Made by a program: the position numbers and the translations under genes. A stretch of 64,000 bases of DNA, taken from positions 64,001 to 128,000 of the IMG/VR virus record IMGVR_UViG_3300034105_003474. One strand, 5' to 3'. This document shows positions 12,998 to 32,881 of the stretch, one piece after another. A model generated the notes under the pieces. The model was not told where the DNA came from, did not search any database, and was given only the letters and a program-made list of their open reading frames with translations. This DNA comes from a virus. The stretch's first letter is position 1, and each line of letters starts with the position of its first letter.

Positions 12998-13096
12998 GTT
13001 GTTCACTCCTAGTGAATTGGATTTGGTTGGTGATTACTTATGTTTTTATTGCAGACTTCGGTAAGCACCTAGTCCAGTTACTATTACTGTAATACG

Positions 13097-15697: not shown

Positions 15698-15960
15698 TAT
15701 TCTTTTTCTTTTTTAGATATTTTTTCAACCTCTGAAGCATATTCCATAGACATCGCGTACTGATCAAATAGTTCATCTATTTTGTCCGCATTCTCTTTAT
15801 TCATCAGATATGAGACCATTGACTCAAGGTCGCCATCTTTTCCGTTTTCGTTTGCATACCCGTAGGCAATGGCAATAATTTTAGAACGTGTTTCAGGGTT
15901 CTTTACTGTCGTTAGCAGTTGATTTTTGATTGAGTTTTTTTGTTCTGTTGTGAGTTTCAT
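15697..15960 (-). CDS. Small protein, candidate immunity partner of the upstream GNAT-like effector
   Basis: 87 aa, stop/start overlaps with both neighbours. Confidence 0.55.
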   Translation of the reverse strand: MKLTTEQKNSIKNQLLTTVKNPETRSKIIAIAYGYANENGKDGDLESMVSYLMNKENADKIDELFDQYAMSMEYASEVEKISKKEKE

Positions 15961-18755
15961 TACGCCAACCTTGGTGGTTCTACTCGTATTCTAGGGCGAG
16001 CAATTTTTGCTTTCTTGGGAAGTTTCTGACCAATTTTTTGTTCAGCAAAAGATAGCGTTCCACCACCAAATCCAAGATTTGCTTTAAACCATTGTTTCAC
16101 ATATTCCATCTTTTCCCTGTCACCAGTAGGATCATCCAAAGCAAAGATTATGTCTTGATGCTGATACTGCTTACCACCTCTTGCTTGTGCAAGGATTGAT
16201 TTGATTCGCGCATATTCTGCGTCATTATTTATCAATCCGCCAGCACCAAAATCCTCATAAAATTTGAGAGGCGACTGAAGCACTTGTAGGTCTCTATCGG
16301 TCAAACCATAGTTTCTTTTGAATCCAACACGAGCCCAAACATACTGACCATCATCGGCTGCGTTCACATTTGCTTTAGTGACACCTATTTGCTTCAGATA
16401 GAGAAACGCATGTTGGTTATAAATTGTTTGAATATCAGCACCCCTATCAATTTTGCTTGTTACAAACATTGAATTTTGGCTTACGATACCCTGCGACACG
16501 CTTACGCTCCGAGACGAAGTAGCGATTTTTGCTCTTATAACTTCACCATTTGCGTTAATCTCGTCAAACTGAACCTGAACTTGAAACCCATTTTGGGGAG
16601 ACACTGTTGCCGTAGCACGGTAAAGTTTCCCGTTCTTACCTTCAATTCTTTGGTGAGAATAAGCCTGTTTCAAGTACTCTGCCTTTTGCGGAGCAGTGAG
16701 TCTTCCCCATTTTACGGGTGTCATGTCTTCATATGGTGCACCACCGTTTGGGTGCCGTTGCTTAAGATACTTAGCAAGTTTTCCTTGACGACGTTCAATC
16801 GCCTCGTTCACCTGATCATTGATCTTCTTCGCTACATCTTCTGGAAGCGGTCTAGGAATATTTGTTGCATCTGTGTTGAAAACAAAACCTTGTTTCCTTC
16901 TTTCTGATGCTTTCCGTATTTCTGGTCCTAATGCTTCTATCAACTGAATATGACCTTCATATTTTCCAATATCGGATTGCAGTTGAGCAATTTTTTTCAT
17001 TGTTTCAACACGGTTGAATTCTTTTACTTCTGGAGTATTGCCAAGAGGTGAACGCATAAGTCTGAATTCTGCGCTGAGTTGTGTTTCTAATTCCGCAAGT
17101 TTGGTTCGCGCACCTGCAACTCCACCTTGCGGTCTTACATATCCAATATATTTTCTTTTCGCTTCGGTAACTAAAGCCGATACATCAGCATTGGGATTTG
17201 CCCTCAGTAAATCTGCAACTCTTGAAAGTTCTTTTTGGAAGTTTCGTACCGCAAGTTGGCGACCTTCATTTTGGTTAAACAGTGCTTGATCGGCTGCTAA
17301 GCCAAGTTGTCCCAAAAGTTTTGGATCTCGCATTTGAAGTAATACTTCTTCAATAAGATCTTCATCTTCTTTTTTGAATTTCGCCGCTTCCATCTTGGGG
17401 GCAACATGCTTTAGTTCATCTGGCACATCCCTAACATCGCGTCTTGTCGGAGCATTGAAAGGTTCGTCAATTGGGTTTGGCACGCTTGACGGTTTCGGGG
17501 CAGGTGTTTCTCTTCTGTCGGAAGGCAGTTTATTGTGTTTCTCTACTTCTTTCCAAGCATTGATAACGTCATTGAGTTCTTCTTTTAATTCACGCACATT
17601 CATTTGTTCGTTTGCACCAGAAACAACATCAAGGGGACTCAAATCACCCCTATTCTGTGCTTGCTGTATGCGATCAAGTTGTGCTTGATGTATCAAAATA
17701 TTTCTTTTTGCAAGGTTTAGAGCGTTTGACCTTGGGTTCTGATCTGTTTGATTTATATCAGGGAAGTTAATTGGATCGTTTATTATTCTTAAACGTGCGT
17801 TCAATACATCTCTGTTGATTCGTTCAACAAAAGTTTCATCATTTAGCACATTATTCAAGTTCATGTGCCTTATTTTTTTGGGGCGAGCAGCCTCTGCCCT
17901 AACCTCTTCGGAACGAGCGGCATTGTCGCTTTCTCCGCGTGGAGCAGGTCGCGGAACTCGTCTTTGTTCTGATTCGGCATCAAGCATCGCACCAATGTCG
18001 CCTTCGGGTTTCTTTCTAGGGCGACGAGGTTTAACCACCTTTGGTTCTACAACTGGTTTTTCAACAATGTTTTGTGCTTGTTGTCTTGGTGCTTTAGGCT
18101 TGTTTGTTGCTTCAACAACTGCACGACGACGGCGACGAGCAGGTGCTTCACCAGTACGAGGTGCACCGGGTTGTTCAATCTCACGATCCATGCGTCGTTG
18201 TTCTGATTCTCTAACATTTGGCGCACGCCTTCTCTGTGGTGCACGAGGAGCAGGTGGAGTAGGGGTTAACTCTCTTGGAGTGGCAGGTGCATCAACGGAT
18301 GGTTGTCGGGTAACAACAGTTCGCCTACGGGCACCACGAGGACTTGGGGTATCGGAAACTTCTAATCTGTCTGCAACACCACGCAAACCTCGCTCTAGGC
18401 GACCTGCGCCACCGCTTTGAGGATTAAGTCTTGCAAGTATTCGTCGTTCACGACGAGCAATACGACGACCACGGCGAGCATCATCAACATTCTCTAAGCG
18501 TTGACCAATATCTGATATTTGATTAGCGATGCGTCGTGCGACACCCCAACCGCAAGACCGACCAAAGCGATCGGTTATCTGTCCGCCATACCGTGTCCCC
18601 GTTGGACAGCGCCAGCCTCCACGACGGTTGGTGCCGGGTATAGAAAGACTTGGATCCCACATGGCGCGAACAGCCTTGACTTCATAAGCAATAGTTGACG
18701 TGTTCCGTTCGCTAAGAAAAGATTTTGCCTTAAAGTCGGCGATATTCTGAAGCAT
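15960..18755 (-). CDS. Polymorphic head-module protein: conserved RCPxG module plus C-terminal GNAT-like acetyltransferase domain
   Basis: WDPSLSIPGTNRRGGWRCPTGTRYGGQITDRFGRSCGWG; C-terminal DRGADIQ...LKQIGV...VNAADDGQYVWARVGF. Confidence 0.65.
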   Translation of the reverse strand: MLQNIADFKAKSFLSERNTSTIAYEVKAVRAMWDPSLSIPGTNRRGGWRCPTGTRYGGQITDRFGRSCGWGVARRIANQISDIGQRLENVDDARRGRRIARRERRILARLNPQSGGAGRLERGLRGVADRLEVSDTPSPRGARRRTVVTRQPSVDAPATPRELTPTPPAPRAPQRRRAPNVRESEQRRMDREIEQPGAPRTGEAPARRRRRAVVEATNKPKAPRQQAQNIVEKPVVEPKVVKPRRPRKKPEGDIGAMLDAESEQRRVPRPAPRGESDNAARSEEVRAEAARPKKIRHMNLNNVLNDETFVERINRDVLNARLRIINDPINFPDINQTDQNPRSNALNLAKRNILIHQAQLDRIQQAQNRGDLSPLDVVSGANEQMNVRELKEELNDVINAWKEVEKHNKLPSDRRETPAPKPSSVPNPIDEPFNAPTRRDVRDVPDELKHVAPKMEAAKFKKEDEDLIEEVLLQMRDPKLLGQLGLAADQALFNQNEGRQLAVRNFQKELSRVADLLRANPNADVSALVTEAKRKYIGYVRPQGGVAGARTKLAELETQLSAEFRLMRSPLGNTPEVKEFNRVETMKKIAQLQSDIGKYEGHIQLIEALGPEIRKASERRKQGFVFNTDATNIPRPLPEDVAKKINDQVNEAIERRQGKLAKYLKQRHPNGGAPYEDMTPVKWGRLTAPQKAEYLKQAYSHQRIEGKNGKLYRATATVSPQNGFQVQVQFDEINANGEVIRAKIATSSRSVSVSQGIVSQNSMFVTSKIDRGADIQTIYNQHAFLYLKQIGVTKANVNAADDGQYVWARVGFKRNYGLTDRDLQVLQSPLKFYEDFGAGGLINNDAEYARIKSILAQARGGKQYQHQDIIFALDDPTGDREKMEYVKQWFKANLGFGGGTLSFAEQKIGQKLPKKAKIARPRIRVEPPRLA

Positions 18756-18758: not shown

Positions 18759-19076
18759 TTAAGCCTTAAAACTTTTTTTATTTGGAAGAGATTTAATTTG
18801 ATTTTTATACATTTCTTCAGTTACTTGCCCATCAGAACTGTATTGTGCGGACATTGAATTAAGACGGTAAAGAATATATTCCATTCCGCTTCCCTCTAAA
18901 GGGATCTCGTTTCGTGCCGACGATTCTGAAAGAATTTCAATAAGTTGATCAACAAGTTCTTTATCGGAAGCGTGTATTTCTACAAGTCCATCAATATTTT
19001 TTCCAGCGCAAGACCCATTTACCTTGTTTGTAAATGGATCCATGAATTGACCTATAAAAAACTCTTTCATGATCAC
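18759..19076 (-). CDS. Small AT-rich gene, candidate immunity protein
   Basis: 105 aa, overlaps the stop codon of the upstream kinase gene. Confidence 0.55.
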   Translation of the reverse strand: MIMKEFFIGQFMDPFTNKVNGSCAGKNIDGLVEIHASDKELVDQLIEILSESSARNEIPLEGSGMEYILYRLNSMSAQYSSDGQVTEEMYKNQIKSLPNKKSFKA

Positions 19077-21940
19077 CTTTGGTTACTTGGAATTATATTG
19101 ACTATCTCATTTTCGGCGTTGCGAAGGTTTGCAAGACTTCGTACCATGCCATCATAAAGTGCTCCTGCTCGGGCTTTATTTGAGTCAGTCTTACTTACTT
19201 TCTGCAATGCGTCTGTTATGAATTGTTCACGACCGACAGCAAGTGTTTTTTCTGTTTGCACAACAACCTGTCTGTACACTTCTTGAATTCGCGCATAAGT
19301 TTCACGCCTTTGCGCGTCTGACATAGCGGGTAGTGCGGTGCGCATTGTGGCAAGAATGTCCTGATCCATTGAGAAACCCCGTTGGTAACGATCAAACAGC
19401 CCTCCGTGTGCCCTTCCAGCCCAACCCAAGTCCATCGGAACGACATGCGCTAATTTCTTGCCGTCTGGTAATTCCACTACACGACCCATACCGTTGCCTC
19501 CGTGGCGGTCGCTAACACCAAGAATATAGTTGGCTAGAACATTGGACAATCTTTCAGGAAGACCTTTATCTGGAAGAGCGTTCAGGGCTCCTTTGTTGAA
19601 ATCGTACCCACCAGCAGCACCGCCGATTACTGCCCCTTCAGGCACGTCGTTGTGTGCCAGAGGGATCATGATGTAAGGGGTTCCTTTTCGGACTGTTCCA
19701 AGAGGCTTTCGTACATCTGCTTCAAGTTTACCGTCTTGAATTGCTCCGTCTTCCAAGATCCCTACAGCAGCCAAGTAGTTCCATCCAATGAGTTCGCCGA
19801 CATTGTCGGCAGGTTTTGCAGCCTTGAAAACCCATCCCTGATTAGTCGGATTTCCATTTTCATCACGCAAAAAGTAAATTTTAGTTACACCTACAGCGCC
19901 ACCGTTGGGTTGTACTTTTTTGAAACGCTTATTTGTGTCTCGTGGGTCTGATGAAGCGTTTGCCTCTATGGCAATGTGCATGAATTTTGCTGGAACTTTT
20001 TGTATGTCTCCACCATTTTTTATATGGTCAATTGCTTTTTGTTCCGTATTAATTGTTCGGTCTTCTTCGGAAACAAACTTTCCGATAGGGGAGTTCCTTC
20101 TGTCTATCTTTAACTTACCATGAGCATTTTTTGATCTTGCAAACTTACGGAATGGTGATTTCTTTTGTCCTTGAGCCGCTGCTCTTGGTGCAGTAGGTGG
20201 TTTAGGTGTCGTTGGTGAATTGTCTTCTGTCGCTGGGAATTCCCCTGAAGGACCGCCAGCAGCAGCATAAATAAATTCTGCGAAGTTGTTGTAGTCACTT
20301 ACCGTATGGCGACCGCCATAGCCCTGTTCGTAAGAGTTCCCATCTGGTTCGCGTAGAGTAAATTTTGTTAATTTTCCATTACCGTCAAACTCTGGAGTAA
20401 GCGTGTAACCATTTCGTGTCCACATAGTTTTATCTGTGTTAAGAACCCAATTTGAATTTAAATTCAACTTTTCCAAATTGTTCAGTGGTTGATTATTAGG
20501 TGCTTGTCCCTGTTGTTGAGCAGGACGTGCTGGTCTCACAGGTCGCGCTGGTGCTGGCTCTGGAACATCATCGGCGGTTGGTTTGCGTGTAGCGCTACGA
20601 GCGGCACCTGCTGTTGTTGCCTTCTTGCGACGACCACGATTATTCCGTGGGCGACGAGCCTGTGGTGTTGGCGGTTCAAAATCTTGTGGTGCACTACGAC
20701 CGTGAGCATCTTTCCAAGCGTCACGAAGATTAGGTTTGTTGATTGCATACCATTCACGCCGTGTCAGCATTCCTGCGTTTCCACCACCTGCGCGAATCTC
20801 ACGAACACGCTTAGCGTATTCATCGTATTTTCTTAATACATACGGGCTGAAACCTTCGGTTGCACTTGCGTCTGATGCTTCGCGTGCTGTGAGTACATCA
20901 ACGTTTTCTGCTTGTGGTGCAACGCGTGGGCGTGGCTGTGGTCGTCTTTGTCCTGCTGGCGCTGGTCGGCGTGCAGGACGAGGTGTTGACGCAGGCGTTG
21001 GCGCTGTTTCAGGAATAACATCGCGTCTCCTGTTTTGTGGTCTACGAGCCGATGGTGCACCTGCTTCAGGTAGTACATCTTCGCTTCTTTCGCGACCACC
21101 ATTTCCGTTAACAACTCTGTCTAAAACACTTCCGGGTCGCAGGTCATCTGCTATGCGGTTGCCAAGTTCAGCAAAACCAGGACCGCCTCTTCGCTGTCGC
21201 GGTTTAGCACCACCTTCAAGACGATCAGCAATACCGCGCAATCCACCTTCAACGCGACCAGTCTCAGGAACTCCACCAAGCCGTCTAATCATTCGTGCGT
21301 TACGACGGTCAAGGCGACGCTTTCGTTTGTCGTCGTCTCGTTGTTCTAAGCGTTCACCGATGTCGGCGATTTGGTTGGCGATGCGACGCGCTACGCCCCA
21401 ACCGCACGAACGACCAAAACGATCGGTGATCTGTCCGCCATATCGTGTCCCTACAGGGCATCGGAAACCACCACGACGATTCGTGCCGGGAATAGAAAGA
21501 CTCGGATCCCAAATTGCTCGCACACCTTTGATTTCAAAGTTGAAAGATGATTGGGTTTGGTCAGAGATAAATGATGAAGCCTTGAAACTCAGAACATTTT
21601 GGAATTCTTCGTTTGAAAACTCAGAAAGTAAAACCTCAGATATTGAAAGAACAGGAAGGTTTTTGGTTTCTACAATTTCCGGTTTAAGGAATGCAAGGTT
21701 TGCAACCTTTTTCTCTATCGCTGATCCTGATGGGCTTGGACCTTCAATAATTTTTGATGAGTCCATTGTTTGAACTAGTTCAGGTTTTGTTATAGGTGTT
21801 TTGCCATATTCTTGACGGAGAAATGTGGCAACTTCTTTAGCGGCTTCGGTCATTGGCTTGAAGGTGGATCCTTCAGGGGTCGTTGAGACGACCATAAATG
21901 GTGTGTTGTCGCGATTTTTGATAATGAAAACTAGGTTCAT
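19073..21940 (-). CDS. Polymorphic head-module protein: RCPxG module plus C-terminal HipA/PI3K-like kinase
   Basis: GGAVG loop, WVFK, GELIG, DRHGGN, PMD. Confidence 0.75.
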   Translation of the reverse strand: MNLVFIIKNRDNTPFMVVSTTPEGSTFKPMTEAAKEVATFLRQEYGKTPITKPELVQTMDSSKIIEGPSPSGSAIEKKVANLAFLKPEIVETKNLPVLSISEVLLSEFSNEEFQNVLSFKASSFISDQTQSSFNFEIKGVRAIWDPSLSIPGTNRRGGFRCPVGTRYGGQITDRFGRSCGWGVARRIANQIADIGERLEQRDDDKRKRRLDRRNARMIRRLGGVPETGRVEGGLRGIADRLEGGAKPRQRRGGPGFAELGNRIADDLRPGSVLDRVVNGNGGRERSEDVLPEAGAPSARRPQNRRRDVIPETAPTPASTPRPARRPAPAGQRRPQPRPRVAPQAENVDVLTAREASDASATEGFSPYVLRKYDEYAKRVREIRAGGGNAGMLTRREWYAINKPNLRDAWKDAHGRSAPQDFEPPTPQARRPRNNRGRRKKATTAGAARSATRKPTADDVPEPAPARPVRPARPAQQQGQAPNNQPLNNLEKLNLNSNWVLNTDKTMWTRNGYTLTPEFDGNGKLTKFTLREPDGNSYEQGYGGRHTVSDYNNFAEFIYAAAGGPSGEFPATEDNSPTTPKPPTAPRAAAQGQKKSPFRKFARSKNAHGKLKIDRRNSPIGKFVSEEDRTINTEQKAIDHIKNGGDIQKVPAKFMHIAIEANASSDPRDTNKRFKKVQPNGGAVGVTKIYFLRDENGNPTNQGWVFKAAKPADNVGELIGWNYLAAVGILEDGAIQDGKLEADVRKPLGTVRKGTPYIMIPLAHNDVPEGAVIGGAAGGYDFNKGALNALPDKGLPERLSNVLANYILGVSDRHGGNGMGRVVELPDGKKLAHVVPMDLGWAGRAHGGLFDRYQRGFSMDQDILATMRTALPAMSDAQRRETYARIQEVYRQVVVQTEKTLAVGREQFITDALQKVSKTDSNKARAGALYDGMVRSLANLRNAENEIVNIIPSNQR

Positions 21941-22062
21941 TGTTTACTTTCCACATTCGTGAAGATATTCAGCAAGCCATGCAAATCTTGAGGTTGCATT
22001 ATCGCTACCGTAAAATGGTATCACTAAGTGGGTGATATTAATTTTAGGTTGATGTCAATATA

Positions 22063-22359
22063 TTATTTGTTATCTAATTTTTTGTGACCCAAGGCAACTA
22101 GGAAATTATTAATTTTATCCTTATTTGAACCCTTGTACTCAAGTATTTCTGCATGACGGTATGAGTACCCATGCAACATACTCTCAAGGTCAGCCCTATC
22201 CGACGAGCCTTTCTTGACCGCCAAAAAGTGTTCATTGTCCTTTTTGTCTGAATCTTTATCCTTTGAGTAATACTTAATAATCCCTTTATCGTCCTCAACT
22301 ATGACGAGTGGATCCACCTGAACTAGTGGGTCTTTGGAGGTGATGATCGCTGCTCTCAT
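22063..22359 (-). CDS. Small protein, candidate kinase immunity protein (homolog of 26749-27066)
   Basis: MRAAIIT...PLVIVEDDKGI...NEHFL...GYSY. Confidence 0.6.
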   Translation of the reverse strand: MRAAIITSKDPLVQVDPLVIVEDDKGIIKYYSKDKDSDKKDNEHFLAVKKGSSDRADLESMLHGYSYRHAEILEYKGSNKDKINNFLVALGHKKLDNK

Positions 22360-22364
22360 GGTTC

Positions 22365-25037
22365 CTATGATCCTATAATCAAATCAGCAAGTCTGCCGGG
22401 GTCAACATCTGTTATATATTTCATTTTTCTTTGCGGTTTTACGCCAACCCTCAAAAGAGCCTGATCCCCACCCCTAGGGTTAGCGGTTCCATCCCCACCG
22501 GCTTTCAGTACATCTTCAACAACATTCATATACGGGTTTTTACGCTCTGCCTCACGGATGGACTTCTGAACCTCTTCAACGGCTAAGAGTATCTCGCGCC
22601 GACTTATTTGCCTATCTTTGAATTGCTGTCTCAATGTTGCAAGCATCTCGTTTCTTCTACCACCAACATCGTTGCCTAAAAAGCCTCGTAATCCTTCGTC
22701 GTTGCCATCATAATTTTCGTGAGCCCGCCCACCCCAGTTGACATCAAACCCAAGAGAAGGATCAATTGGGACGAACCGCTTCTTACCACTGGAGTCAGTC
22801 GCTACAAAGAAGTTCCCTCCATGGCGGTCTCTGTTGACCATGATGTAGTCCAAAAGTGTCGCTCTAACACGATCGGCAGGTTTTATTTGCGACACGGCTA
22901 CTTGATTTCTTCCGTCTGTCAGCACCCCATCAACGTAGTTCCCTGCGTGTTCATAAACAATAGCCCTACCAGCGCTGTTAGGGGCACCCGGTCCACCTTT
23001 TTGTTTCCCATCCATTCGCACACCACCGACAGGCATGCCAAGTCTACCAGCAAGATTATTGCCGATCACTTCATGAATGTCTTCGTTTTCTGCATGGGCA
23101 CCACTTTGGTATTTTAAGAAAAACTTGTTCCCAGTGATGGCGTCGGTAAACATATGCATATTGTTGGGAATGTTGCCGTTAACACCACCACCAGCATCTG
23201 ATTTAGAGAATCTTGTTGTTGCACCGTGTAGTGCTTCACCCAATAACTCATCAGGGACATCAGCCAAATCTCCACCTTTTTCTAGGTGGTCAATTGCTTG
23301 CTCCTTGGTATCCATACCTTTGTTCCCCAATGGAACGCTTTTCACATCAGGCAAACCGTCTTCACCTAATTTGTTCAGTTTTTCTGGTGCATGACCATCT
23401 TTTGCTTTTGGTGGTGAGACATCCCATCCACCTTCTGGTTCTGGTATGTCTGCTGGTCGTTGTGGTGGTTGCGCTGGTGACTGTACGCGTGGAGCGTTCT
23501 GGTCGTTGACATTATTATTTGGTACAACAACTTGATTTCGTTGCCTAAATTCAATAGCAGCATCAATTTCAGCAAGTCTTAATTCGGCAGCGGAAACTCC
23601 GTCTTTTATTTTTTCTTTTTGTCCCCACATTCGCAATAAATTATCTCTGGCTTCGTCTCTTTCTCGTTCGCTACCATTCTTTTTACTCTGCCAGTCTTCA
23701 AAGGCTCTATCAAATCCTGCTTGAGCCTCTTTGAGAAGTTCTTGATCTCTAATTTTCTTTCCCAAAACTTCTTCTTTGGACATGTTGCGCAAATTATTGT
23801 AAGCGTTCGGCTTGTATCTTTCAATTTCCCCTTCTACTGCTTTGACTAAAGCCTCGTCTCTTTGCTGGTCAAACTCCCTGCGAGGGTTTATGTCTCTTGC
23901 TGGCAGTGGCGGTGGACCTGCTCGTCGTGCAGGTGCTTCAGGTTCAGGCTGTGGCGCTCCTGCTTGTTGCCCAAATATTTGTTGGTTAACAAAATTGCCA
24001 CGAGCATTACGCTTATTGTTGTCATCGTAATACCGACCAAACCTTCTCTCTAGTTCGGCTTTTTCTTCGCCTTCAGGGAAGTCTGGTTTACGCCAATACG
24101 CATCTTCGGGTAATCCGCGAAGATCGCCAAATCGGTTAACAACATTACGGATAGAACGATCGTCCGGTATGCTCCCTCCCAACTCGTCTGCTGTTGGGTT
24201 CCATGCGGGTGGTGGTGGAATTGGTGATGATTGTTCCGCTGGTCGTTCTGGTGGTTTTGGTGCGGGTTTTCTGCGTGGCACCTTTGTCGGTACAGGTTTT
24301 GAACCGTCAACAAAATCTGCTTCAGGTTTTCTTCTAACAGTTCTTTTTGCGCCTTGTTGTGTAGCGTTTCGTCGGCGTCGTCGTGGAGCATTTGGTGCGG
24401 GTGGTTCACCTGTGCGTGGTGCGCCGGGTTGAACTATTTCTCTGTCCATTCTTCGTGCTTCTGATTCACGGAGATTTCCTCTTCTCCGAGGTGCCCGTGC
24501 TGGTTCTCTTGCTGGTTGTTCAGCATCTCCGCCAACAGGGATTCTTGGACGAGCAGGAGGTTCTATGCGTGCAGGATTTTGAACAGCGATTCGTGGACGA
24601 GCAGGAGCGCGTGGAGTAGTTACTGGTTTTCCAGTTGCTCCACCATCTAACGCGTCTGCCAAACCGCGAGCGCCACGCTCAAGTAAGCCGGGTTTATCTT
24701 GACGAGCCAAAAACCGTTGCACACGCGCATTCCGTTTTGCCAAACGAGCATTTCGTTTACGGTCGTCAACATTCTCTAGCCGTTCACCAATATCTGCTAT
24801 CTGGTTTGCGATTCTCCGAGCAACACCCCACCCGCAAGACCGTCCATAACGGTCTGTAATTTGACCGCCGTATCTTGTGCCAACAGGGCAACGCCAACCG
24901 CCACGACGATTCGTGCCCGGAATAGACAAACTTGGATCCCAAAGCGCACGAGCGCCTTTAACATCATAATTAAAAGTACTTGCAGTTTGCTCAGCGAGAA
25001 ACGCGAGCGCCTTGTAATTCACTTCATTCTTGAGCAT
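22365..25037 (-). CDS. Polymorphic head-module protein: RCPxG module plus C-terminal HipA/PI3K-like kinase
   Basis: GGGVNG loop, FFLK, HEVIG, LDYIMVNRDRHGGN, PID. Confidence 0.8.
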   Translation of the reverse strand: MLKNEVNYKALAFLAEQTASTFNYDVKGARALWDPSLSIPGTNRRGGWRCPVGTRYGGQITDRYGRSCGWGVARRIANQIADIGERLENVDDRKRNARLAKRNARVQRFLARQDKPGLLERGARGLADALDGGATGKPVTTPRAPARPRIAVQNPARIEPPARPRIPVGGDAEQPAREPARAPRRRGNLRESEARRMDREIVQPGAPRTGEPPAPNAPRRRRRNATQQGAKRTVRRKPEADFVDGSKPVPTKVPRRKPAPKPPERPAEQSSPIPPPPAWNPTADELGGSIPDDRSIRNVVNRFGDLRGLPEDAYWRKPDFPEGEEKAELERRFGRYYDDNNKRNARGNFVNQQIFGQQAGAPQPEPEAPARRAGPPPLPARDINPRREFDQQRDEALVKAVEGEIERYKPNAYNNLRNMSKEEVLGKKIRDQELLKEAQAGFDRAFEDWQSKKNGSERERDEARDNLLRMWGQKEKIKDGVSAAELRLAEIDAAIEFRQRNQVVVPNNNVNDQNAPRVQSPAQPPQRPADIPEPEGGWDVSPPKAKDGHAPEKLNKLGEDGLPDVKSVPLGNKGMDTKEQAIDHLEKGGDLADVPDELLGEALHGATTRFSKSDAGGGVNGNIPNNMHMFTDAITGNKFFLKYQSGAHAENEDIHEVIGNNLAGRLGMPVGGVRMDGKQKGGPGAPNSAGRAIVYEHAGNYVDGVLTDGRNQVAVSQIKPADRVRATLLDYIMVNRDRHGGNFFVATDSSGKKRFVPIDPSLGFDVNWGGRAHENYDGNDEGLRGFLGNDVGGRRNEMLATLRQQFKDRQISRREILLAVEEVQKSIREAERKNPYMNVVEDVLKAGGDGTANPRGGDQALLRVGVKPQRKMKYITDVDPGRLADLIIGS

Positions 25038-26756
25038 TTATTTTTTCTTCTTTGCGCTGACCAAGTCTGGCTTAATGAAGGTTTCGTACTGCCAACGAGG
25101 TGCTGTTCTTTCAATACCGTCAAGACCTGTGTAAGTAACAAGTTCCAACGGCTTAGGAACATTTCCTGTATCGGTGATAAACTTAAATGCACCTTCTGAG
25201 TTTTTGGCAAAATTCTCAATATTTGAAATAATGTTATCTTTTGTGCTTGATTCTGCAAGAGAGTTAATCATTCGTGGGAACTTGCGCTTCTCGCCAATCG
25301 TAAATGGTCGTGAACGCTCAATACTTACCACTACACCGTTTGGTGCAACAAACGCAATTTTACTCATTGAAGGACCACCCAATAGTGCCAGATCATCTGC
25401 TCCTATATCAGCAGGTAGTTGAATGGCGCGAACCATTGCGCCGTCAACCATGTCAGGGTTCTCGCTAAAAGAACGAAGAACAGATGAAGCAACAACAGGA
25501 CGCAAAACCACTCCGTCTCTGCGGATCATTCTGCCTTCACCTTTTGGTGCGCCTTTAAGCAAGTTGATTGAATCCGATACTGAACGGTTGAATTTATCTT
25601 TTTGGAATGCACCTGTTCGTGGTATCTGTGCCATGCGCTGAATTTGAATTGTTCGCGCTGCTGTCGGTGAACCTTCTAATACTTCGGACAGATTCTCTGC
25701 TCGCGCTTGTGGAAGTTTTGGTGATGCTGTCGGGCGCATTGCTCGCCTTATGAGTTCTAGCGGACCTGGTATTTCAAACAACTGCGCACCACAAGTGGAG
25801 AAACGATTGTCCGTGAAACGACCACCAAATTCAAAACCGGCAGGGCATCGTGCTTGACGCCTGCGATTAGGCTTGAGCCTGCTGAGCGCCCCACCGCCAC
25901 CGCCGGGAATAAGTGCGCCATAAAGTCTTGAGCGAATAGGTGCGCTGAATGGGGATATGTTGCCCGGTGTTACTACAGAACCAACTGCCTGAGCCGCTCT
26001 ACCAAGTCCACTTGAAGAACCAACAAGACCTGCTTTGATTTCCATGTCTTCAGCGTCATCTTTTTCAACACGGTATCCACCGCCACGCTTCTTGTATTCG
26101 CGAACAAGCCAAGCGTTAGCGTAAGCAGAAGGGTATACATTGAATTTCTTTTTTGCTTCGGCTTTTACTCGCGCATAAAGTTCTTTGTCCGTTGGGATAT
26201 TCGCACCTTTTAATGTGGTCTCATCAGATTTGAATGTGGACACATTGATCGGCTTGTTTTCTTCTCGGTTACCCGCTGTTTCTGCACGACGCTTTCTGCG
26301 AACAGCGGAATCAATTTCTTCTGCGGACATTCTCATCGCTGTAGATTTCTTTACACACTTAGGGTATTTACCTGAATCTGCGTCTCCGCGACCACATGAC
26401 TCAAATCCGCCACCTTTTTTCGGGCGTGAAATATCAACCCATTCTTCTTCAAACCATTTCCCTAATCCACCGCGCTTGGATTCATCACCGATAAAGGTTT
26501 CTGCACCTAGTTTTGATGTACGAGACTTTAGGTAAAGTTTTGCTTTAAAGTTTAGAAGAGCCCTACTTCCGTCAAGCGGAGTTTTACGAACATCTGATCC
26601 TTTAGTGAAAAGGAATTTTGTTTTTGCATTATCAGGGTTAAAATAAATTTCCTCACCAGAGACAATATTCGTCCGTTTCATAGCAGTTTTCATACGCATA
26701 GACATACGGAGTTTTCTCGCAAAATACTCAAAGTCTTGGTTGAGATAACTACTCAT
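25038..26756 (-). CDS. Multi-domain head-module protein (GLGKWFEEEWVD domain, DUF5872-like YPSAYA domain, divergent RCPAG module)
   Basis: RVKAEAKKKFNVYPSAYANAWLVREYKKRGG; RCPAGFEFGGRFTDNRFSTCG. Confidence 0.65.
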   Translation of the reverse strand: MSSYLNQDFEYFARKLRMSMRMKTAMKRTNIVSGEEIYFNPDNAKTKFLFTKGSDVRKTPLDGSRALLNFKAKLYLKSRTSKLGAETFIGDESKRGGLGKWFEEEWVDISRPKKGGGFESCGRGDADSGKYPKCVKKSTAMRMSAEEIDSAVRRKRRAETAGNREENKPINVSTFKSDETTLKGANIPTDKELYARVKAEAKKKFNVYPSAYANAWLVREYKKRGGGYRVEKDDAEDMEIKAGLVGSSSGLGRAAQAVGSVVTPGNISPFSAPIRSRLYGALIPGGGGGALSRLKPNRRRQARCPAGFEFGGRFTDNRFSTCGAQLFEIPGPLELIRRAMRPTASPKLPQARAENLSEVLEGSPTAARTIQIQRMAQIPRTGAFQKDKFNRSVSDSINLLKGAPKGEGRMIRRDGVVLRPVVASSVLRSFSENPDMVDGAMVRAIQLPADIGADDLALLGGPSMSKIAFVAPNGVVVSIERSRPFTIGEKRKFPRMINSLAESSTKDNIISNIENFAKNSEGAFKFITDTGNVPKPLELVTYTGLDGIERTAPRWQYETFIKPDLVSAKKKK

Positions 26757-27066
26757 TTTTTGCCGATTCTTTCGGTTCTTCAGGTTCCGCTATTTCTGCG
26801 GGCAAGGTTGTCTTCCACTTTTTAGCCAACTGCCTTAAAAGTGTAATATTTTTTTCATCCAGCACATTAGTACTAACACTATGATACGACATTCCCGAGG
26901 TTGCTTTTTCAATAGTGTCCCTTTGGGACAGAAACAATTCGTTTGTCAAACTTGATGCGAACTTCGGGTCAGGGGCTACCACACCAAAAATGCCGTAATC
27001 CCCCTCAAGAAGAACATATGGGATACCTGAAACATCGGCACTCGGGGTAACTAGGGCGTATCTCAT
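26749..27066 (-). CDS. Small protein, candidate kinase immunity protein (homolog of 22063-22359)
   Basis: MRYALVT...PYVLLEGDYGI...NELFL...GMSY; ATGA overlap with the kinase stop codon. Confidence 0.6.
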   Translation of the reverse strand: MRYALVTPSADVSGIPYVLLEGDYGIFGVVAPDPKFASSLTNELFLSQRDTIEKATSGMSYHSVSTNVLDEKNITLLRQLAKKWKTTLPAEIAEPEEPKESAKNE

Positions 27067-28916
27067 ACAACACTCGCGACTATATCTTCCAACGCTGAGT
27101 CAGCCTTGAGTTTTGGTGGTTTTACAACAAGGTCTGCCAATTGTTTTGGGGTCATTGCTTGCATCTCTCTTAAGCGTGACGACGCCTTTCCGATGTCTGC
27201 CTGCATCTTTTCCATTTCTTTCAACTTTTCGGGAGACATCGCCCATTCTCCTATCAAATTACGATCTTTCAGCATCTCGTCAAGTTGACTCAAGAGACGA
27301 TTTTCCAATGAATCTGCGTCAATTTTCTTTATATCTTGGAGAACTTTTTCAGCATCCTCAACCAGTTTTGCATGCTTCTCAACTGTCCCACCGTGGCGAC
27401 TATTCAGTTCTTGACCAAGATAACCATATTGAAGACCGCCAGCAAACTTTTCTGCTGTTTCGCTGAAATCAAAAACGTTGAGAATAAAACTATGGTCAAT
27501 GGGGACTGCGTCCACACCATCAGAGTTTTCAGCAAAAAGGATGTTTCCGCTATGCCTGTCACCATTAGCCATAGCAATATCCATGATTTGCATATGGAGT
27601 AGTTTGCGACTGTCCACCTTTGCCAATGTTTCAGGGGTGGCAGAGAGTATTTGTCCCTCATATGAGTTGTGAACCAAATCGGTTACTACTCCCATGGCTG
27701 CCTGTGTCGGGGATGCTTGAACAACTCGCAAAGATGAAGATGGATACCCAAAGTCTTCTGTCATGGAAACAGCAAGAACTTCGCTCGCTGGCTCATACCA
27801 TCGGGATGCTCCTCCCTTGGTCAGAGGGGCATTGCTTAACGGGGATTTTTTATCCCAAAGTTGTGTGCGTGAAGCGTATTTAACGCCCAACATTTGACCT
27901 GTAGTTCTATCACGCAAGCGGTTCATTCCAACCACTCCCCCACCAGTGCCAATAAGTTCAAACCTCTTCAGTTCCGCAATGTTCCCATCCTCGTCGTAAA
28001 CATCAATATTTTCTAGGATTGCGTCAAGAACCAGAGTGTCGCTGATTTCGTTCAGTTTCCCGCCATTAGCGATATGTTGTGAAGCCTTTTCACCAGTATC
28101 AATGTTTTTATCCACGCTAGGTAAATCACGGGCAATGTTCCTACCGTTGGCATCAGCAACACCAATTTGTGGGTCAAAGTCTTTAGCCTTGGCAATAGCG
28201 CTGTTGCCTTTCTTGAACCCGCTAGGGGATTTGACCACGGGTGGATCAGCCTTTGGATCGTCTTTTTTATCTTTGCGACGCTTTAATGTCGCTAAGAGGA
28301 AATTCTTTGCATCAACGGTGGCGTCTCGTTTAATCTTCCCCGCTACTGCTTCCAACTGTTCTTTTTTCTTGTCAGATATTTTCCCGCGCCTATGAAGCGA
28401 GTCAGTAGCAAAGTCCAATAGTTGCGCACCGCCAGACTTCAATAAAACCATACCGAAAAGCGTAGATTGTGTCATTGAATCTGAACCATCTGCGTACATG
28501 TAATCCATTGTTTGCAGGGCAATCATCGCCGCTGCTTTTGAACCATTTTTTACTTTTTCAGATTTGAAAATTACCCGAGCGCCATCAATCAATTTTCCAG
28601 CCATGGAAGCCGCCCCGCGTGCTGCTGATTCAGCAGAAGGGGTGAGGCAGTTGGACATCTGCATGTCGGTGAACTGATTTGCGTTAGGTGTACCGGGTGG
28701 GCATCGCAACTTACCCAAAGAATCAACTATCACCCCCGCAGCACGCGCCGCTCTATGACCAACAGAGGTTAACTCTGGTCGGTCTTTTACAGTAGGTCCA
28801 AGGAAACCTTTGAACAGCAAAACATTCTCTTGAACAGCAGCAACAGATTTGCGGTATTCTGCAACTCTCTCGTTTGCGTCAAAAGCGCGAGACGATTTAA
28901 TCATCGCCTCAACCAA
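27063..28916 (-). CDS. Polymorphic head-module protein: divergent RCPPG module plus C-terminal HipA/PI3K-like kinase
   Basis: RCPPGTPNANQFTD..SNC; GGGVVG, GVK, SEVLA, DIAMANGDRHSGN, PIDH. Confidence 0.78.
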   Translation of the reverse strand: MVEAMIKSSRAFDANERVAEYRKSVAAVQENVLLFKGFLGPTVKDRPELTSVGHRAARAAGVIVDSLGKLRCPPGTPNANQFTDMQMSNCLTPSAESAARGAASMAGKLIDGARVIFKSEKVKNGSKAAAMIALQTMDYMYADGSDSMTQSTLFGMVLLKSGGAQLLDFATDSLHRRGKISDKKKEQLEAVAGKIKRDATVDAKNFLLATLKRRKDKKDDPKADPPVVKSPSGFKKGNSAIAKAKDFDPQIGVADANGRNIARDLPSVDKNIDTGEKASQHIANGGKLNEISDTLVLDAILENIDVYDEDGNIAELKRFELIGTGGGVVGMNRLRDRTTGQMLGVKYASRTQLWDKKSPLSNAPLTKGGASRWYEPASEVLAVSMTEDFGYPSSSLRVVQASPTQAAMGVVTDLVHNSYEGQILSATPETLAKVDSRKLLHMQIMDIAMANGDRHSGNILFAENSDGVDAVPIDHSFILNVFDFSETAEKFAGGLQYGYLGQELNSRHGGTVEKHAKLVEDAEKVLQDIKKIDADSLENRLLSQLDEMLKDRNLIGEWAMSPEKLKEMEKMQADIGKASSRLREMQAMTPKQLADLVVKPPKLKADSALEDIVASVV

Positions 28917-29246
28917 CTATTTGTCGCTAGATTCTGACGCTTTGTTAAAGAAAGAAAGTGGAACAACATCATCATCCTCTGCATCTTTTTTCTTAGAAGG
29001 CTTTTTCGTTTCCACTTTGGTTTCTTGTGCATCCTCAACAGGTTCATCAACGCTGATCTCTACTGATGCAGGTGTTTCAACTTCCAACACTGCTTCTTCA
29101 ACGACAACTACTTCCTCTTTGACTTCAACCTCAACAACAGAAATCTGAACTTCAGGCGTCTCAACTACGGGCACTTGTTCTTGTTTTGTGTCAAAAGCAA
29201 GACCAGAAGTGTTCACTGAGTCAAAAGGTTGGTTTTCTTTTTTCAT
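28917..29246 (-). CDS. Acidic low-complexity protein
   Basis: Glu/Val-rich 109-aa ORF tightly packed in the operon. Confidence 0.65.
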   Translation of the reverse strand: MKKENQPFDSVNTSGLAFDTKQEQVPVVETPEVQISVVEVEVKEEVVVVEEAVLEVETPASVEISVDEPVEDAQETKVETKKPSKKKDAEDDDVVPLSFFNKASESSDK

Positions 29247-30724
29247 TAAATGTCGCCAAGACCTGTTTCAATTTCAAGCATTTCAAGTTCCATCAAACTG
29301 CTTAGGAACTCTTTCGCTTCGTCATCCAAAAGAGTCTTTTCTTCCGACCATTCGGCAGGAATCATGTCTTCTTTGTCAAGTTCCATTGCACGCTTCTTGA
29401 TGTGTGCTTTTGCTTTTTCTTTATCTTTTGCGCGACCGTAAGACATGATTGCGTTCTTCAAGTCTTCTTCGTCCTTGATTGGGTATGAGCCGTCTGGCAA
29501 AGCCATTCCGCCCTTAGCCATTTCGTCACGCTCATCTTCGCTGTACATTGCCTTAAGGGCAACATCGGCTACTTCTGCATCAATGTCTGCGGCTTCTTCA
29601 GGATCGTATTCATCAAATCCGAGGATTTCACCGTCAACACCAACATAAACATCGTATGACTTTCCGTCTACGCCTTCAATTTCTACAGCGTAAGCGTCGT
29701 AACCATCAAACATATCTGCGTCTACAGAAACAACTTCGCCTTCAATTGACTTGGTTGCAATATCTGAAGCCTCACTGAACGAGATTACTTTTTGTCCGGG
29801 TACGGTTGCTACTTCACCGATCAAATCTTCATTCAAAAGGTGCCAGCCCATGCACTCGCCTGACGAACCGTCAAAGTAAGCCTCAACTGGCTTTCCATCT
29901 TTGCGTTGAACATCAACAACAAAAACATCAACTTCGTCCGCGTAGCCAGAGTCAAGAACTTTTCCTGCGAACATGCTCTCTGCCATTCCTTCAATTTCAA
30001 GAAGACTTGGCATTGTGTCTTGTTGTTCACATCCACCTGGGCATGATGCACAGATTTCTGAACCACCCGCATAGACGCGACGCTCAATGGCGCAAACAAA
30101 AGCAAGATCGTCGTAGTCAGCAGACTTGACACCCATTGTTTCCATGCGCTTAGCGCGAGCCTTCTTGCGTTGCTCCATCATCTTTTCAATCTCGCTGTAC
30201 ATCTTCTCTTCTTCATCATCAAGATCTTCAGGCATGTCTTCTTCGTCGTCTTCTTCTTCCATATCCACGACTTCAGTAGGCTTCTTTTTCTTTTTTGCAG
30301 GAGCAGGGGTCATTCCCTCTTCCATCATTGCGAGATCTTCTTCCATCTTTGCTCCCTTTTCGTCTGAAGCGGTAACCCACTCAGATTTTTCGGTTGCTAC
30401 TTCTGGTGCTGCGTCAGCAGGTACGGCTTCTTCCGTTTGCGTGACAGCCTTCGCTCCACACTTGCCACAAACTTTTGCGCCGGGCTTGTAGCCACATTCT
30501 GTTAACTCCAAACCTTTGGCGCATTCAATTCCGCCGTCTGCAAGAAGTTTTACTGTTGGTGTTTCGCTAGCCATGTTCGTGGACTCCTTGTAGTGCATTG
30601 TTTTTGCAATACACTTTGTTGGATTAGAGCAAACAGAGCATGGCGTCAAGCGTTTATCGCCTGACATCAGACACTGATATTTTGCTGTTTTTTGTGGTAA
30701 ACCTGTTATTGAAGTATAACCCAT
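29246..30724 (-). CDS. Acidic head-module protein with Cys clusters, PepSY-like repeats and a C-terminal DUF6582-like domain
   Basis: ISFSEASDIA...GEVVSV...YAVEI...YDVYV..DGEIL (PepSY-like); ALPDGSYPI...KRA.EL. Alternative start at 30574 has an AGGAG RBS. Confidence 0.6.
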   Translation of the reverse strand: MGYTSITGLPQKTAKYQCLMSGDKRLTPCSVCSNPTKCIAKTMHYKESTNMASETPTVKLLADGGIECAKGLELTECGYKPGAKVCGKCGAKAVTQTEEAVPADAAPEVATEKSEWVTASDEKGAKMEEDLAMMEEGMTPAPAKKKKKPTEVVDMEEEDDEEDMPEDLDDEEEKMYSEIEKMMEQRKKARAKRMETMGVKSADYDDLAFVCAIERRVYAGGSEICASCPGGCEQQDTMPSLLEIEGMAESMFAGKVLDSGYADEVDVFVVDVQRKDGKPVEAYFDGSSGECMGWHLLNEDLIGEVATVPGQKVISFSEASDIATKSIEGEVVSVDADMFDGYDAYAVEIEGVDGKSYDVYVGVDGEILGFDEYDPEEAADIDAEVADVALKAMYSEDERDEMAKGGMALPDGSYPIKDEEDLKNAIMSYGRAKDKEKAKAHIKKRAMELDKEDMIPAEWSEEKTLLDDEAKEFLSSLMELEMLEIETGLGDI

Positions 30725-30778: not shown

Positions 30779-32881
30779 TTACATTGAGTCCATGATGTTG
30801 AGCAACGCATCAAATGCTTCGTCCTCTACACCATCAATCTCAACCATCACTCCGTCCTCGGTGACTTCTGATTTGATTTGATAATAATCCAGAATTGGAT
30901 CCAAAAGTTCTTTGACTTCGTACAGTGATCGTTCAGCAGAAGAAACCATGAGAGTTTCTTTCTCATCCAAGGACAATGACTTAGCCTCAATCTCTGAAGC
31001 CACACCACCTGAACTCAACACTTCCTTGAGAAGGTTGAAAGCGTTCTGTAGTTTTGTCATATTCCGTGAACTGATAACCCGTCCTGCTTTGACTTCAATG
31101 TCTTCATCGGCGTCTTTGCCCATGAGTTCAGCAATAGCCGCCATCAGCATGCCCATCATCTGCTTAGGGTCTTTGCCTCCGCCACCGCAACCACAGTCAT
31201 CATCGTCGTCAGAGTCTTTGTAGTAAGGCATTTCCATAACTCCGCCGTTATCGTCATCGCCTTCCATGACCCAGTTTTTCTTATCTGCCATGTAGTTGAT
31301 GAAGTCAGGCTCATCATTCATGAATTGCTTCAGAGCCTCATAAGCCTTTTCGTTGCCCTCGTCTTCGTTCTCAAACTCAACATCTTCCATTTTCATGGTT
31401 TCTTCTGTTTCATCTGATTCAGCCAAACGGTCAGCCATAGCCTCCATCATTTCGTAACCCTTTTCCTCAGAGTCAAGGAAGTCAAATATTGACTTGATTT
31501 CTTCTTCAGTCATGGTTTCAAGCGATTTGCCGGGCTTGAGTACTCCCCTAAGACGGTTATTGAATTCGTCGTCGTCCCAGTTCAACTTGCGTAGTTTGCC
31601 ACGACAGTTCTTCATGCCCGGATGATGGCATCCTTCGTTCGGCCAGAGACCAGTTGTTTCATGGTGAAGCCAAGCGCAAATATTACTCAACGGGTAAAGT
31701 TCAGGGTGGTTGGCGAGAATCACACGGCAACGGCGGAATCCGCCCGGCTTGCGCATGATTGGGCGCCAGTAGCGGAGCAGTTTTTCAAGGTTTCCACGAC
31801 GAGGACCGTATCCACGGGTACGGGCAGTAACAATTTCTTGAGGAATGATACCGCCAAGTGGGTCAGCCTTTTCAGGTGACTTTGGTTTTACGCCTGCTGG
31901 TACCTGTGGATCTGCATCAAGGTTGTATCGGTCTTCGTACCTGCGCTCAGCGTCAGAACCGCTTGGCTTGTCTCCATCAACATTGATGTAAACAACCTGT
32001 GGCTTGACCCTTGTGGCTTCGCCGATCATAAATTGTCCATCTTCGTAATGATACGAAACGCGCATCGTGATGATGCCTTGACCTTCTACACGGTGGTCAA
32101 ATATCGCGCTATTTGCATCTGATTCACGAATCCGTACTGCGCCACCAAACTTCTTCGCTAATGCAAGTGGGAGGTTGGCTTCACGACTGCGGTTTGGCAT
32201 AGGTGCATCAATTGCGTCATCGTCTTGTTCTGGCTTTGCTTCTACTTGTGGCTTGTTGCGTTGCATATTGCTTGCCATGAAGCGTGCAAGAAGCGAACGA
32301 CCCGCTTCAGTAATGTTGCCATTTTCTTCTCGCATGTAACCTTTTTCGTCGTTGCCTTCAAACGACTTGATGGAAATCGTTCCCGTAAGTTGGTTTGCGC
32401 CATGAAGAACAGGGCTTGCTTCGTATAGTTCTACCTTCTTCAATACGTTTGCTTGGCGCTGTGGGTCAAAATCGGCATCAAGGGTTTTGTAGCCAATTGA
32501 CCACTCTTGCTCTTCTCCGAAGAAAGCAACATCGGCAAAAGCCTGACGACCGCGTTCTGATTTCAGATTGAACTGAACTTTGGCGTATAGACCGCCAATA
32601 CCAGCGGCACGCATCTTCATTGGAAGTCGTGGATCCGATGGTGGAACTTCGTACATTTCAAGAACTTTGCCAATTGGCTCATTCCAGTTGTGACCCCAAA
32701 CAACACGGGGTTTGCGCCTCTTAAGGCTGTCTGTGAAAGCGCCCGGAACGATGATGTCGCCGACACTGTCCTTGTTGCCGATTCCTGCAACGAAACATTC
32801 AACTACGCCTTGCGCTTCGTCAATGTTGAACTGACCTTGTAGCGCCTTGTATTGCTGTGTTTCGGTCATCGTCGTAGACAT
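30779..32881 (-). CDS. HK97-family prohead protease with long C-terminal extension
   Basis: DSVGDII.PGAF, VVWGHNWNEPIG, WSIGY, LYEASPV..GAN; position after the portal gene. Confidence 0.92.
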   Translation of the reverse strand: MSTTMTETQQYKALQGQFNIDEAQGVVECFVAGIGNKDSVGDIIVPGAFTDSLKRRKPRVVWGHNWNEPIGKVLEMYEVPPSDPRLPMKMRAAGIGGLYAKVQFNLKSERGRQAFADVAFFGEEQEWSIGYKTLDADFDPQRQANVLKKVELYEASPVLHGANQLTGTISIKSFEGNDEKGYMREENGNITEAGRSLLARFMASNMQRNKPQVEAKPEQDDDAIDAPMPNRSREANLPLALAKKFGGAVRIRESDANSAIFDHRVEGQGIITMRVSYHYEDGQFMIGEATRVKPQVVYINVDGDKPSGSDAERRYEDRYNLDADPQVPAGVKPKSPEKADPLGGIIPQEIVTARTRGYGPRRGNLEKLLRYWRPIMRKPGGFRRCRVILANHPELYPLSNICAWLHHETTGLWPNEGCHHPGMKNCRGKLRKLNWDDDEFNNRLRGVLKPGKSLETMTEEEIKSIFDFLDSEEKGYEMMEAMADRLAESDETEETMKMEDVEFENEDEGNEKAYEALKQFMNDEPDFINYMADKKNWVMEGDDDNGGVMEMPYYKDSDDDDDCGCGGGGKDPKQMMGMLMAAIAELMGKDADEDIEVKAGRVISSRNMTKLQNAFNLLKEVLSSGGVASEIEAKSLSLDEKETLMVSSAERSLYEVKELLDPILDYYQIKSEVTEDGVMVEIDGVEDEAFDALLNIMDSM

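Follow-up and report, generated by a model that had tools for sequence, protein, structure and literature searches.

Three kinase genes between the protease and capsid genes

The window analysed here, a stretch of 64,000 nucleotides corresponding to bases 64001-128000 of the 144,873-bp IMG/VR virus record IMGVR_UViG_3300034105_003474, carries a phage head operon in which three genes, K1, K2 and K3, encode proteins that end in a diverged kinase domain (Table 1). Read along the minus strand, the operon proceeds from a portal-MuF fusion through an S78 protease to an array that includes K3, K2 and K1, and from there to an HK97 capsid gene. The protease-to-capsid interval holds 13 genes, the capsid gene lying about 18 kb downstream of the protease. 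Behind each kinase gene follows a small gene, called here s105a (K1), s98 (K2) and s105b (K3). For K3, the start at ATG 28904 is the likelier one, since its orthologs have 613-614 residues and a GAGG sits just 5' of this ATG.

The initial annotation had proposed three diverged kinases, each with a Gly loop, a beta-3 Lys, a helix Glu, a catalytic DRHxGN and a P(I/M)D motif, and all of these elements were found, at positions differing by no more than 2 nt. The Gly loops read GGAVG in K1, GGGVNG in K2 and GGGVVG in K3. The beta-3 Lys, although present in all three proteins, does not keep one register, that of K1 (K706, within GWVFK) being displaced relative to K2 and K3; the motif G(W/Y)V(F/L)K is common to K1 and 64 of 160 domains of the wider family described below, with the Lys kept in 52 of the 64. 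By their residue sets, K1-K3 are predicted to be catalytically competent.

The three C-terminal domains can be aligned over about 340 residues at 22-26% identity, and a search of the phage's own genome with K3 recovered K2 (E 3.6e-6) and K1 (E 7.2e-5). A family hidden Markov model built without any window sequence scored K3, K2 and K1 at E values of 6e-111, 1e-92 and 4e-66, respectively (Z=1e6). Judged by these sequence comparisons, the three domains are homologous paralogs rather than products of chance similarity.

Near the start of each domain lies a cap segment, (I/M)xTxxxAxxH(I/L)xxGG, initially annotated as a shared pre-kinase feature. The segment is real in all three proteins, but it is a hallmark of the whole 440-cluster family rather than private to this array: among the 160 family domains its Ala is kept in 136, its first Gly in 145 and its second Gly in 125, while the His is kept in 67 and replaced by Phe in 43. 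In the K3 model, the cap forms a helix followed by a GG turn (predicted local distance difference test score, pLDDT, about 95). Structural alignments with PI4K type II, Vps34 and Fam20 begin at model residues 1-3 and thus span the cap, whereas those with CotH, CtkA and HipA begin at residues 24-37 (CotH: 32). We see the cap as a family-wide marker that extends the N-lobe at its N-terminal side.

Table 1. Features of the kinase array and its borders in the window, all on the minus strand (aa, amino acids; pI, isoelectric point; net, net charge)
Feature	Position	Details
K1	19073-21940	955 aa
K1 leader		112 aa
K1 carrier module	21341-21604	aa 113-200
K1 basic Pro/Arg-rich linker	20090-21340	aa 201-617; pI 11.0, net +34
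K1 kinase domain	19076-20089	aa 618-955
K1 cap segment	19994-20053	aa 630-649
K1 catalytic loop DRHGGN	19493-19510	D811, R812, H813, N816; metal-binding Asp D837 in PMD
s105a, after K1	18759-19076	probable ATG 19070, 2 nt past K1 stop
K2	22365-25037	890 aa
K2 carrier module	24768-25037	aa 1-90
K2 basic linker	23358-24767	aa 91-560; pI 10.1, net +20
K2 kinase domain	22368-23357	aa 561-890
K2 cap segment	23256-23315	aa 575-594
K2 catalytic loop DRHGGN	22812-22829	D737, N742; metal-binding Asp D759 in PID; K642, E656
s98, after K2	22063-22359	98 aa; starts 5 nt past K2 stop; conserved partner family
K3	27063-28916	617 aa from TTG (28916), likelier 613 aa from ATG 28904
K3 diverged carrier motif CPPGT..FTD..C	28647-28703	aa 72-90, within basic helical N-terminal part
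K3 kinase domain	27066-28139	aa 260-617
K3 cap segment	28044-28103	aa 272-291
K3 catalytic loop DRHSGN	27543-27560	D453, N458; metal-binding Asp D474 in PID; K346, E379
s105b, after K3	26749-27066	105 aa; ATGA overlap with K3 stop; conserved partner family
572-aa protein	25038-26756	DUF5872; diverged carrier motif CPAGFEFGGRFTD..C at aa 303
931-aa protein	15960-18755	carrier module and basic linker (pI 11.7); non-kinase C-terminal domain
492-aa protein, between protease and K3	29246-30724	PepSY domain PF03413
Prohead serine protease (S78)	30779-32881	700 aa; upstream border of array
Portal fused to C-terminal MuF	32978-35182	PF04860 E 1e-49, PF04233 E 7e-8
HK97-type major capsid protein	11681-13006	downstream border of array; PF05065 E 8e-48

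Fold and family of the kinase domains

Structure comparison was run on the K3 domain, with K1 and K2 covered by homology, using an AlphaFold2 model from a 42-sequence alignment (mean pLDDT 88.8; predicted template modelling score 0.87). Foldseek, a second look with VIA-align and an exhaustive VIA-align run over 48,161 representative PDB chains all returned only protein-kinase-like folds as top matches, so that the refuting outcome named in the initial annotation, a fold that is not kinase-like, did not occur. Foremost were Bacillus CotH (5JD9, 5JDA; Z 14.1-14.3, 243-252 residues aligned, root-mean-square deviation (rmsd) 4.0-4.7, 12% identity) and PI4K type II alpha and beta (alpha: 4HND, 4PLA; Z 13.4-14.1, 238-247 aligned, rmsd 4.0-4.5), followed by CtkA (Z 11.9-13.1), Vps34 (Z 12.2), PI4KIII beta (Z 11.4-12.2), Fam20 (Z 11.2-11.8), HipA/HipT (Z 10.6-11.7), actin-fragmin kinase (Z 10.8) and the bacterial lipid kinase MavQ (Z 9.7).

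At the sequence level, PI3_PI4_kinase (PF00454) was the sole Pfam family detected on the kinase domains, K3 scoring 29.3 bits, above the cut-off of 27.1, and K2 (17.7) and K1 (11.8) falling below it, with matches that span only profile positions 135-173 of 241, the catalytic-loop region. All three domains have DRHxxN and a downstream metal-binding Asp, as in PI3K/PI4K. No HipA or CotH Pfam match was obtained for K1, K2 or K3 at E<=1, and the Pfam search placed MuF only at the portal C-terminus and in none of the three kinase proteins. NCBIfam gave one sub-threshold SCO1664-family match for K3 and nothing else, PHROGs gave phrog_3162 (function not assigned) for K2 and K3 and nothing else, and a PDB sequence search with a profile of the three domains returned only chance coiled-coil matches.

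Because PI3_PI4_kinase is the only Pfam family matched, HipA models gave no match and the loop follows the PI3K/PI4K pattern, we name K1-K3 PI3/PI4K-like atypical kinases, an assignment drawn from sequence together with the predicted fold. Of the earlier label, 'HipA/PI3K-like', the kinase fold and the PI3K/PI4K-type loop stand, but HipA is the weakest part, given the missing Pfam match, the DRHxxN loop and a Z rank below CotH, PI4KII, CtkA and Vps34. A HipA-type toxin-antitoxin system was likewise rejected, the loop being DRHxGN instead of DxHxKN and an upstream helix-turn-helix antitoxin (HipB) or HipS being absent. HipA and HipT do resemble K1-K3 in their kinase-like fold and in their pairing with a small cognate protein; however, they have the HipA N-terminal domain and the upstream antitoxin, whereas the partner here lies downstream and is unrelated.

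The other relatives differ in their own ways. PI3K and PI4K share with K1-K3 the DRHxxN loop, the downstream metal-binding Asp, a Gly-rich loop, a Lys/Glu pair and the bilobal fold (Z 11.4-14.1), but their metal-binding Asp sits in DFG rather than P(I/M)D, their helical and C2 accessory domains have no counterpart in K1-K3, and the context here is a phage head operon. CotH resembles them in being a compact atypical kinase from bacteria that takes part in building a protein shell, but the identity is low, Pfam finds no CotH match here and CotH has no counterpart of the cap. Helicobacter pylori CtkA, a secreted effector, and Physarum actin-fragmin kinase both belong to this fold group as small atypical Ser/Thr kinases, but have no sequence-level relation to K1-K3 and differ in N-terminal cap and delivery context.

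The affinity to PI4K raises the possibility that K1-K3 are phosphoinositide kinases, acting on the phosphatidylinositol lipids of an actinobacterial membrane or on those of protist grazers. PF00454 is the only Pfam family matched, the GDRHxGNIL loop fits the PI3K/PI4K type, and the alignment with PI4K type II starts at model residue 3 and spans the cap; moreover, the host is probably an actinobacterium (see below), and actinobacteria make phosphatidylinositol. We nevertheless regard a lipid substrate as improbable. CotH, CtkA, actin-fragmin kinase and HipA, compact relatives from bacteria and protists whose matches are just as good, are protein kinases, MavQ ranks lower, no membrane-binding element is evident, and the fold alone does not tell whether the substrate is a protein, a lipid or a small molecule. 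A capsid-delivered version, in which such kinases would strike envelope lipids at DNA entry or rewire the phagosomal phosphoinositides of a protist grazer like Legionella effectors, seems equally doubtful; if true, it would be the first lipid-kinase effector of a phage. A comparable 'Trojan horse' model has been put forward for ADP-ribosyltransferase toxins of freshwater actinophages (PMC6802176).

An exhaustive profile search of 1.84 billion representative proteins places K1-K3 in a family of 440 clusters, counted at 50% identity, at E<=1e-3 (245 at E<=1e-10). Family proteins range from 500 to 4500 residues, the kinase being nearly always C-terminal, and several have two kinase domains; a Pfam scan of 22 giant members revealed as extra domains only NUDIX and 2'-5' RNA ligase, in one protein each. 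K3 orthologs, 70-90% identical, occur on many contigs of 120-155 kb. One of them bears in UniProt the automatic name 'Phosphatidylinositol 3-/4-kinase, catalytic domain containing protein' and comes from an uncultured Caudovirales phage, K1- and K2-like entries in that database being 'uncharacterized'; the metagenome study behind those records reports whiB-based host calls and ADP-ribosyltransferase toxins and mentions no kinases. A literature search found no paper on this kinase family in phages, and megablast of the 9.8-kb region found no match in 50,697 GenBank phage records.

Conservation within the family bears on whether the domains are active. Within the DRHxxN loop, 158 of the 160 domains retain D, 157 R, 138 H and 159 N; 157 domains have the metal-binding Asp and 151 the helix-C Glu, and K1-K3 have every one of these residues. 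Pseudokinases, which would serve solely as structural or internal head proteins, are accordingly very hard to reconcile with the data, because every catalytic residue is kept in K1-K3 and in 94-99% of the family domains (loop His 86%). What speaks for them is that K1 and K2 remain under the PF00454 cut-off and that their activity is a prediction.

Carrier modules, partner genes and cassette exchange

N-terminal to the kinases lies a second conserved element. A module of about 70 residues around RCPxGTRYGGQITDRFGRSCGWG, which we call the carrier, is nearly identical in K1, K2 and the neighbouring 931-aa protein, and diverged versions occur in K3 and the 572-aa neighbour. Its consensus is RCPxGT..GGxxTDRFGRxCG, and a CPxGT..C module is present in most members of the kinase family; the module (RCPxGT..C) is previously undescribed. 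Carriers were found in at least 406 clusters, on proteins of 489-1558 residues, with 76-100% identity among the 120 best matches listed. Among 116 proteins sharing the K2 carrier, 82 end in the kinase, and 33 of the 34 others have the same C-terminus as the 931-aa protein. Different C-termini, such as DUF3626, are likewise found attached to the N-terminal third of K3. Between module and C-terminal domain runs a segment of 200-470 residues rich in Pro, Arg, Ala and Gly (pI 10-11.7, net charge +20 to +34), which is probably disordered; the N-terminal part of K3 is modelled, at low confidence, as long helices. A conserved module, a basic flexible linker and a variable enzymatic end are the layout expected of capsid-loaded cargo, and by this layout, together with gene position, the carrier may be a capsid-loading module.

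The small genes form, in part, a conserved partner family. s105b and s98 are homologous (hhalign P 4.4e-5), and as a group they match small genes behind distant kinases (hhalign probability 95.4%, P 1.8e-8), the kinases compared including proteins of 1954, 4528 and 1162 residues. Four of five distant kinase genes are directly followed by an open reading frame (ORF) of 91-120 residues; behind the fifth (P0043) the next ORF has 246 residues, of which the N-terminal 95 or so fall in the partner family. The 1954-aa protein (P0022) occupies the equivalent protease-to-capsid slot and precedes a 101-aa gene, and the 1162-aa protein (P0058) is followed by a 91-aa member of the partner family. Searches with the small partners yielded no Pfam or PHROG match and no helix-turn-helix, a homolog search went no further than orthologs with 70% identity or more, a feature search of the ESM Atlas gave no usable match, and an alignment of the five small ORFs of the array revealed no common family. 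On the distant contig L018, the small kinase partner has a basic, DUF5872-like tail fused to it.

Comparison with nine syntenic related IMG/VR contigs shows how these parts move. Every related contig that spans the slots has the three-kinase array in synteny, and elsewhere in the family two kinase domains can share one polypeptide. Three intact-looking kinases in one head operon, which the initial annotation called unusual, are thus unusual only in a relative sense; the catalytic sets are complete, and the operon contains portal, S78 and HK97 genes. Among the nine contigs, the N-terminal 250-300 residues of each kinase protein are 66-100% identical. In the K1 slot, the first 300 residues are 73-89% identical, yet three kinase types that are mutually only 23-33% identical follow them, one in the window and L011, another in L005 and L012, and a third, more distantly, in L004 and L009, and the downstream small protein switches along with the kinase type. 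In the tree, the K1-slot cassette of L005 and L012 lies nearer to other family members than to K1. Contig L004 has a different cassette in the K2 slot, and in L012 (2270-3010) the K3 ortholog is reduced to 246 residues, the carrier part, with kinase domain and small gene both missing.

Expressed as alignment score per residue across contig pairs, similarity of the kinase correlates with that of the small gene (Spearman 0.86), whereas similarity of the N-terminal part correlates with neither (-0.06 against the small gene). From these alignments, kinase and downstream small gene are exchanged together as one cassette, a pattern as expected for an arms race, be it between host and phage or between phages. 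Divergence between the motifs had initially been taken to suggest different substrates for the three kinases; this need not follow, as relatives swap kinase and small gene on a conserved N-terminus.

Cassette swaps on a conserved delivery backbone with a co-varying downstream gene are also the layout of polymorphic toxins, and the kinases could accordingly be toxin-immunity cassettes that serve mainly in phage-phage competition, disabling cells or resident phages that lack the matching immunity protein. We think this unlikely. The immunity gene would sit in a late operon, so that its expression would come too late against a superinfecting phage; no silent spare cassettes are seen in the window; and no obvious lysogeny genes were noticed near the array in a search that was not exhaustive.

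The same region invites another explanation, in which K1-K3 are assembly kinases that act in the producing cell or procapsid without being injected, phosphorylating basic proteins inside the head, possibly their own linkers or the scaffold, and thereby controlling how the DNA condenses or the head matures. The model would be CotH, which drives the assembly of the spore coat by phosphorylating coat proteins that are basic and disordered; it is the top structural match, the genes occupy the usual scaffold position between protease and capsid, and the adjoining regions are extremely basic and of low complexity. Assembly, however, predicts conserved enzymes, yet the kinase domain is the most variable part of these proteins and is swapped between close relatives. 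A co-varying cognate small partner is, besides, more typical of effector-immunity pairs, and one family member lies outside any head module. Of the alternatives considered, we give this one the most weight, while still holding it to be rather unlikely.

The surroundings of the array provide several further observations. The portal-MuF fusion in one polypeptide is also present in a distant relative (L016). The protease domain occupies the first 250 or so residues of the S78 protein, and its long C-terminal extension may be a scaffold. The 492-aa protein has Cys-rich N-terminal motifs and a very acidic stretch, and an acidic 109-aa ORF follows it. The 931-aa protein has its own small gene behind it (15697-15960), and its C-terminal part of about 630 residues has no match in Pfam, PHROG, NCBIfam or PDB sequences. 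Two proteins of 424 and 431 residues (13131-15697, minus strand) contain short Cys-containing DUF3721-like repeats, with a DUF3721 Pfam match in the 431-aa protein only, whose C-terminal half falls in no family detected. Labels of ADP-ribosyltransferase and GNAT for the 431-aa and 931-aa proteins are not endorsed, because PDB sequence searches with both came back empty. Upstream of the structural module lie an N6/N4 DNA methylase (2627-4003, plus strand) and a class II (B12-dependent) ribonucleotide reductase (5171-7099, minus strand); the window contains no tRNA genes.

The host is likely an actinobacterium, since the genome carries, outside the window, two whiB genes above the Pfam cut-off (G000:C1:26501-26692 and 62430-62630; loci L014 and L015) and the nearest capsid proteins are those of Brevibacterium and Gordonia phages (47-48% identity). 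With a G+C content of 45% and relatives that come from freshwater, the phage may have its host among the low-GC actinobacteria of that habitat. In Gordonia phage Chidiebere (L013, MN586022.1 9311-42705), a cultured actinophage with one of the closest capsid proteins, the interval from portal to protease encodes an RNA ligase, a toxin of the VIP2-like ADP-ribosyltransferase type and a protein of 971 residues, and is comparable to the array here as a run of possible cargo genes.

Capsid delivery of the kinases

At this locus, the kinase fold and its catalytic residues, the family, the place in the head operon, the modular build of the proteins, the exchange of cassettes and the conserved nature of the partner are established; that the proteins are packaged and ejected, what they phosphorylate and what the partner does is what we infer. 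The reading that we favour, with a confidence only modestly on the positive side, is that K1-K3 are effector kinases loaded into the capsid and expelled along with the DNA, that each is paired with a small cognate binding protein made in the producing cell, and that they diversify by cassette exchange. The carrier would load the protein into the procapsid, where the basic linker would lie alongside the packaged DNA, and the protein would exit with the DNA at infection. The kinase would then phosphorylate host targets before phage gene expression, in the manner of T4 Alt or MuF-fused toxins. The translationally coupled gene of about 100 codons would encode a cognate binder, either an inhibitor or immunity protein or a chaperone, so that the kinase does no harm, or stays foldable, in the cell that produces it, and kinase and partner would be swapped as one cassette among related phages.

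Several points weigh against this proposal. Gene position in a head operon is by itself no proof of packaging, and the role given to the carrier is a guess, because the carrier and the N-terminal 260 residues of K3 give no confident fold (pLDDT 40-65 in the full-length K3 model). The kinase is not tied to heads as such, as P0058 (L019:5729-9492), which has no carrier, lies in a replication-type neighbourhood with a DNA methylase, SNF2 helicase, SSB, WhiB and ThyX. The partner of K1, s105a, is not detectably related to s105b or s98 (P 0.015 and 0.56; group comparison P 0.37). Coupling in the K3 slot is loose, the window and L005 sharing 75% identity in the kinase and 98% in the small gene, and the Spearman coefficient of 0.86 rests on contig pairs that are not phylogenetically independent. 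No cultured relative is known, and tblastn with K2 and with the kinase domain of K3 gave no match in the 50,697 GenBank phage records.

The predicted complex of the K3 kinase with s105b counts on both sides. It scored 0.37 against 0.02 for the best control, which is weak support for the proposal, and the runs disagree (0.37, 0.00 and 0.75), with a contact agreement between runs of at least 0% and a partner pLDDT of at least 74. Of 80 solved complexes, 58 reached the pass mark, as did 2 of 110 mismatched pairs, but scores of 0.60 or less were given by only 7 of the 80 solved complexes and by both mismatches that passed.

Enzymes injected with phage DNA include T4 Alt, the N4 RNA polymerase and probably MuF-fused toxins. 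T4 Alt is a head-packaged ADP-ribosyltransferase that enters with the DNA and modifies host proteins, but it is not a kinase; T7 Gp0.7 is a kinase whose host substrates are phosphorylated early in infection, but it is not packaged. No homology to either was detected, and we know of no packaged phage kinase that has been characterised. The MuF polymorphic toxins of temperate phages (Jamet et al. 2017, PMC5576092), which fall within polymorphic toxin systems generally (PMC3482391), resemble K1-K3 in that they too lie among head or packaging genes and combine a conserved N-terminus for delivery with a variable enzymatic C-terminus and a small gene downstream. Here, however, the delivery part is the RCPxGT..C module, MuF being on the portal instead, the warhead is PI3/4K-like, three such genes stand in a row, and the phage is large and not evidently temperate. 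The polyvalent proteins of phages (Iyer et al. 2017, PMC5512222) are likewise giant multidomain proteins predicted to be packaged and injected, and a kinase is among their listed domains, but of a type lacking the C-lobe, unlike the domain here, which keeps a helical C-lobe and the PI3/4K-type loop. Polymorphic and polyvalent effectors of phage head modules are known; what sets this locus apart is the undescribed carrier, the PI3/4K-like warhead in three copies and the conserved partner family.

The locus brings together three packaged-kinase candidates in a row, a candidate capsid-loading module and a conserved family of small partners, and the same architecture occurs in hundreds of metagenomic phage clusters, many of them probably from freshwater, judging by the UniProt source of their closest relatives. 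Should the delivery model fail, the family would still be a large, unstudied branch of PI3/4K-like kinases. If it is true, the carrier would be a new delivery tag for the loading of capsid cargo, and the diversifying kinase-partner pair would mark a host target under arms-race pressure in abundant, hard-to-culture actinobacteria.

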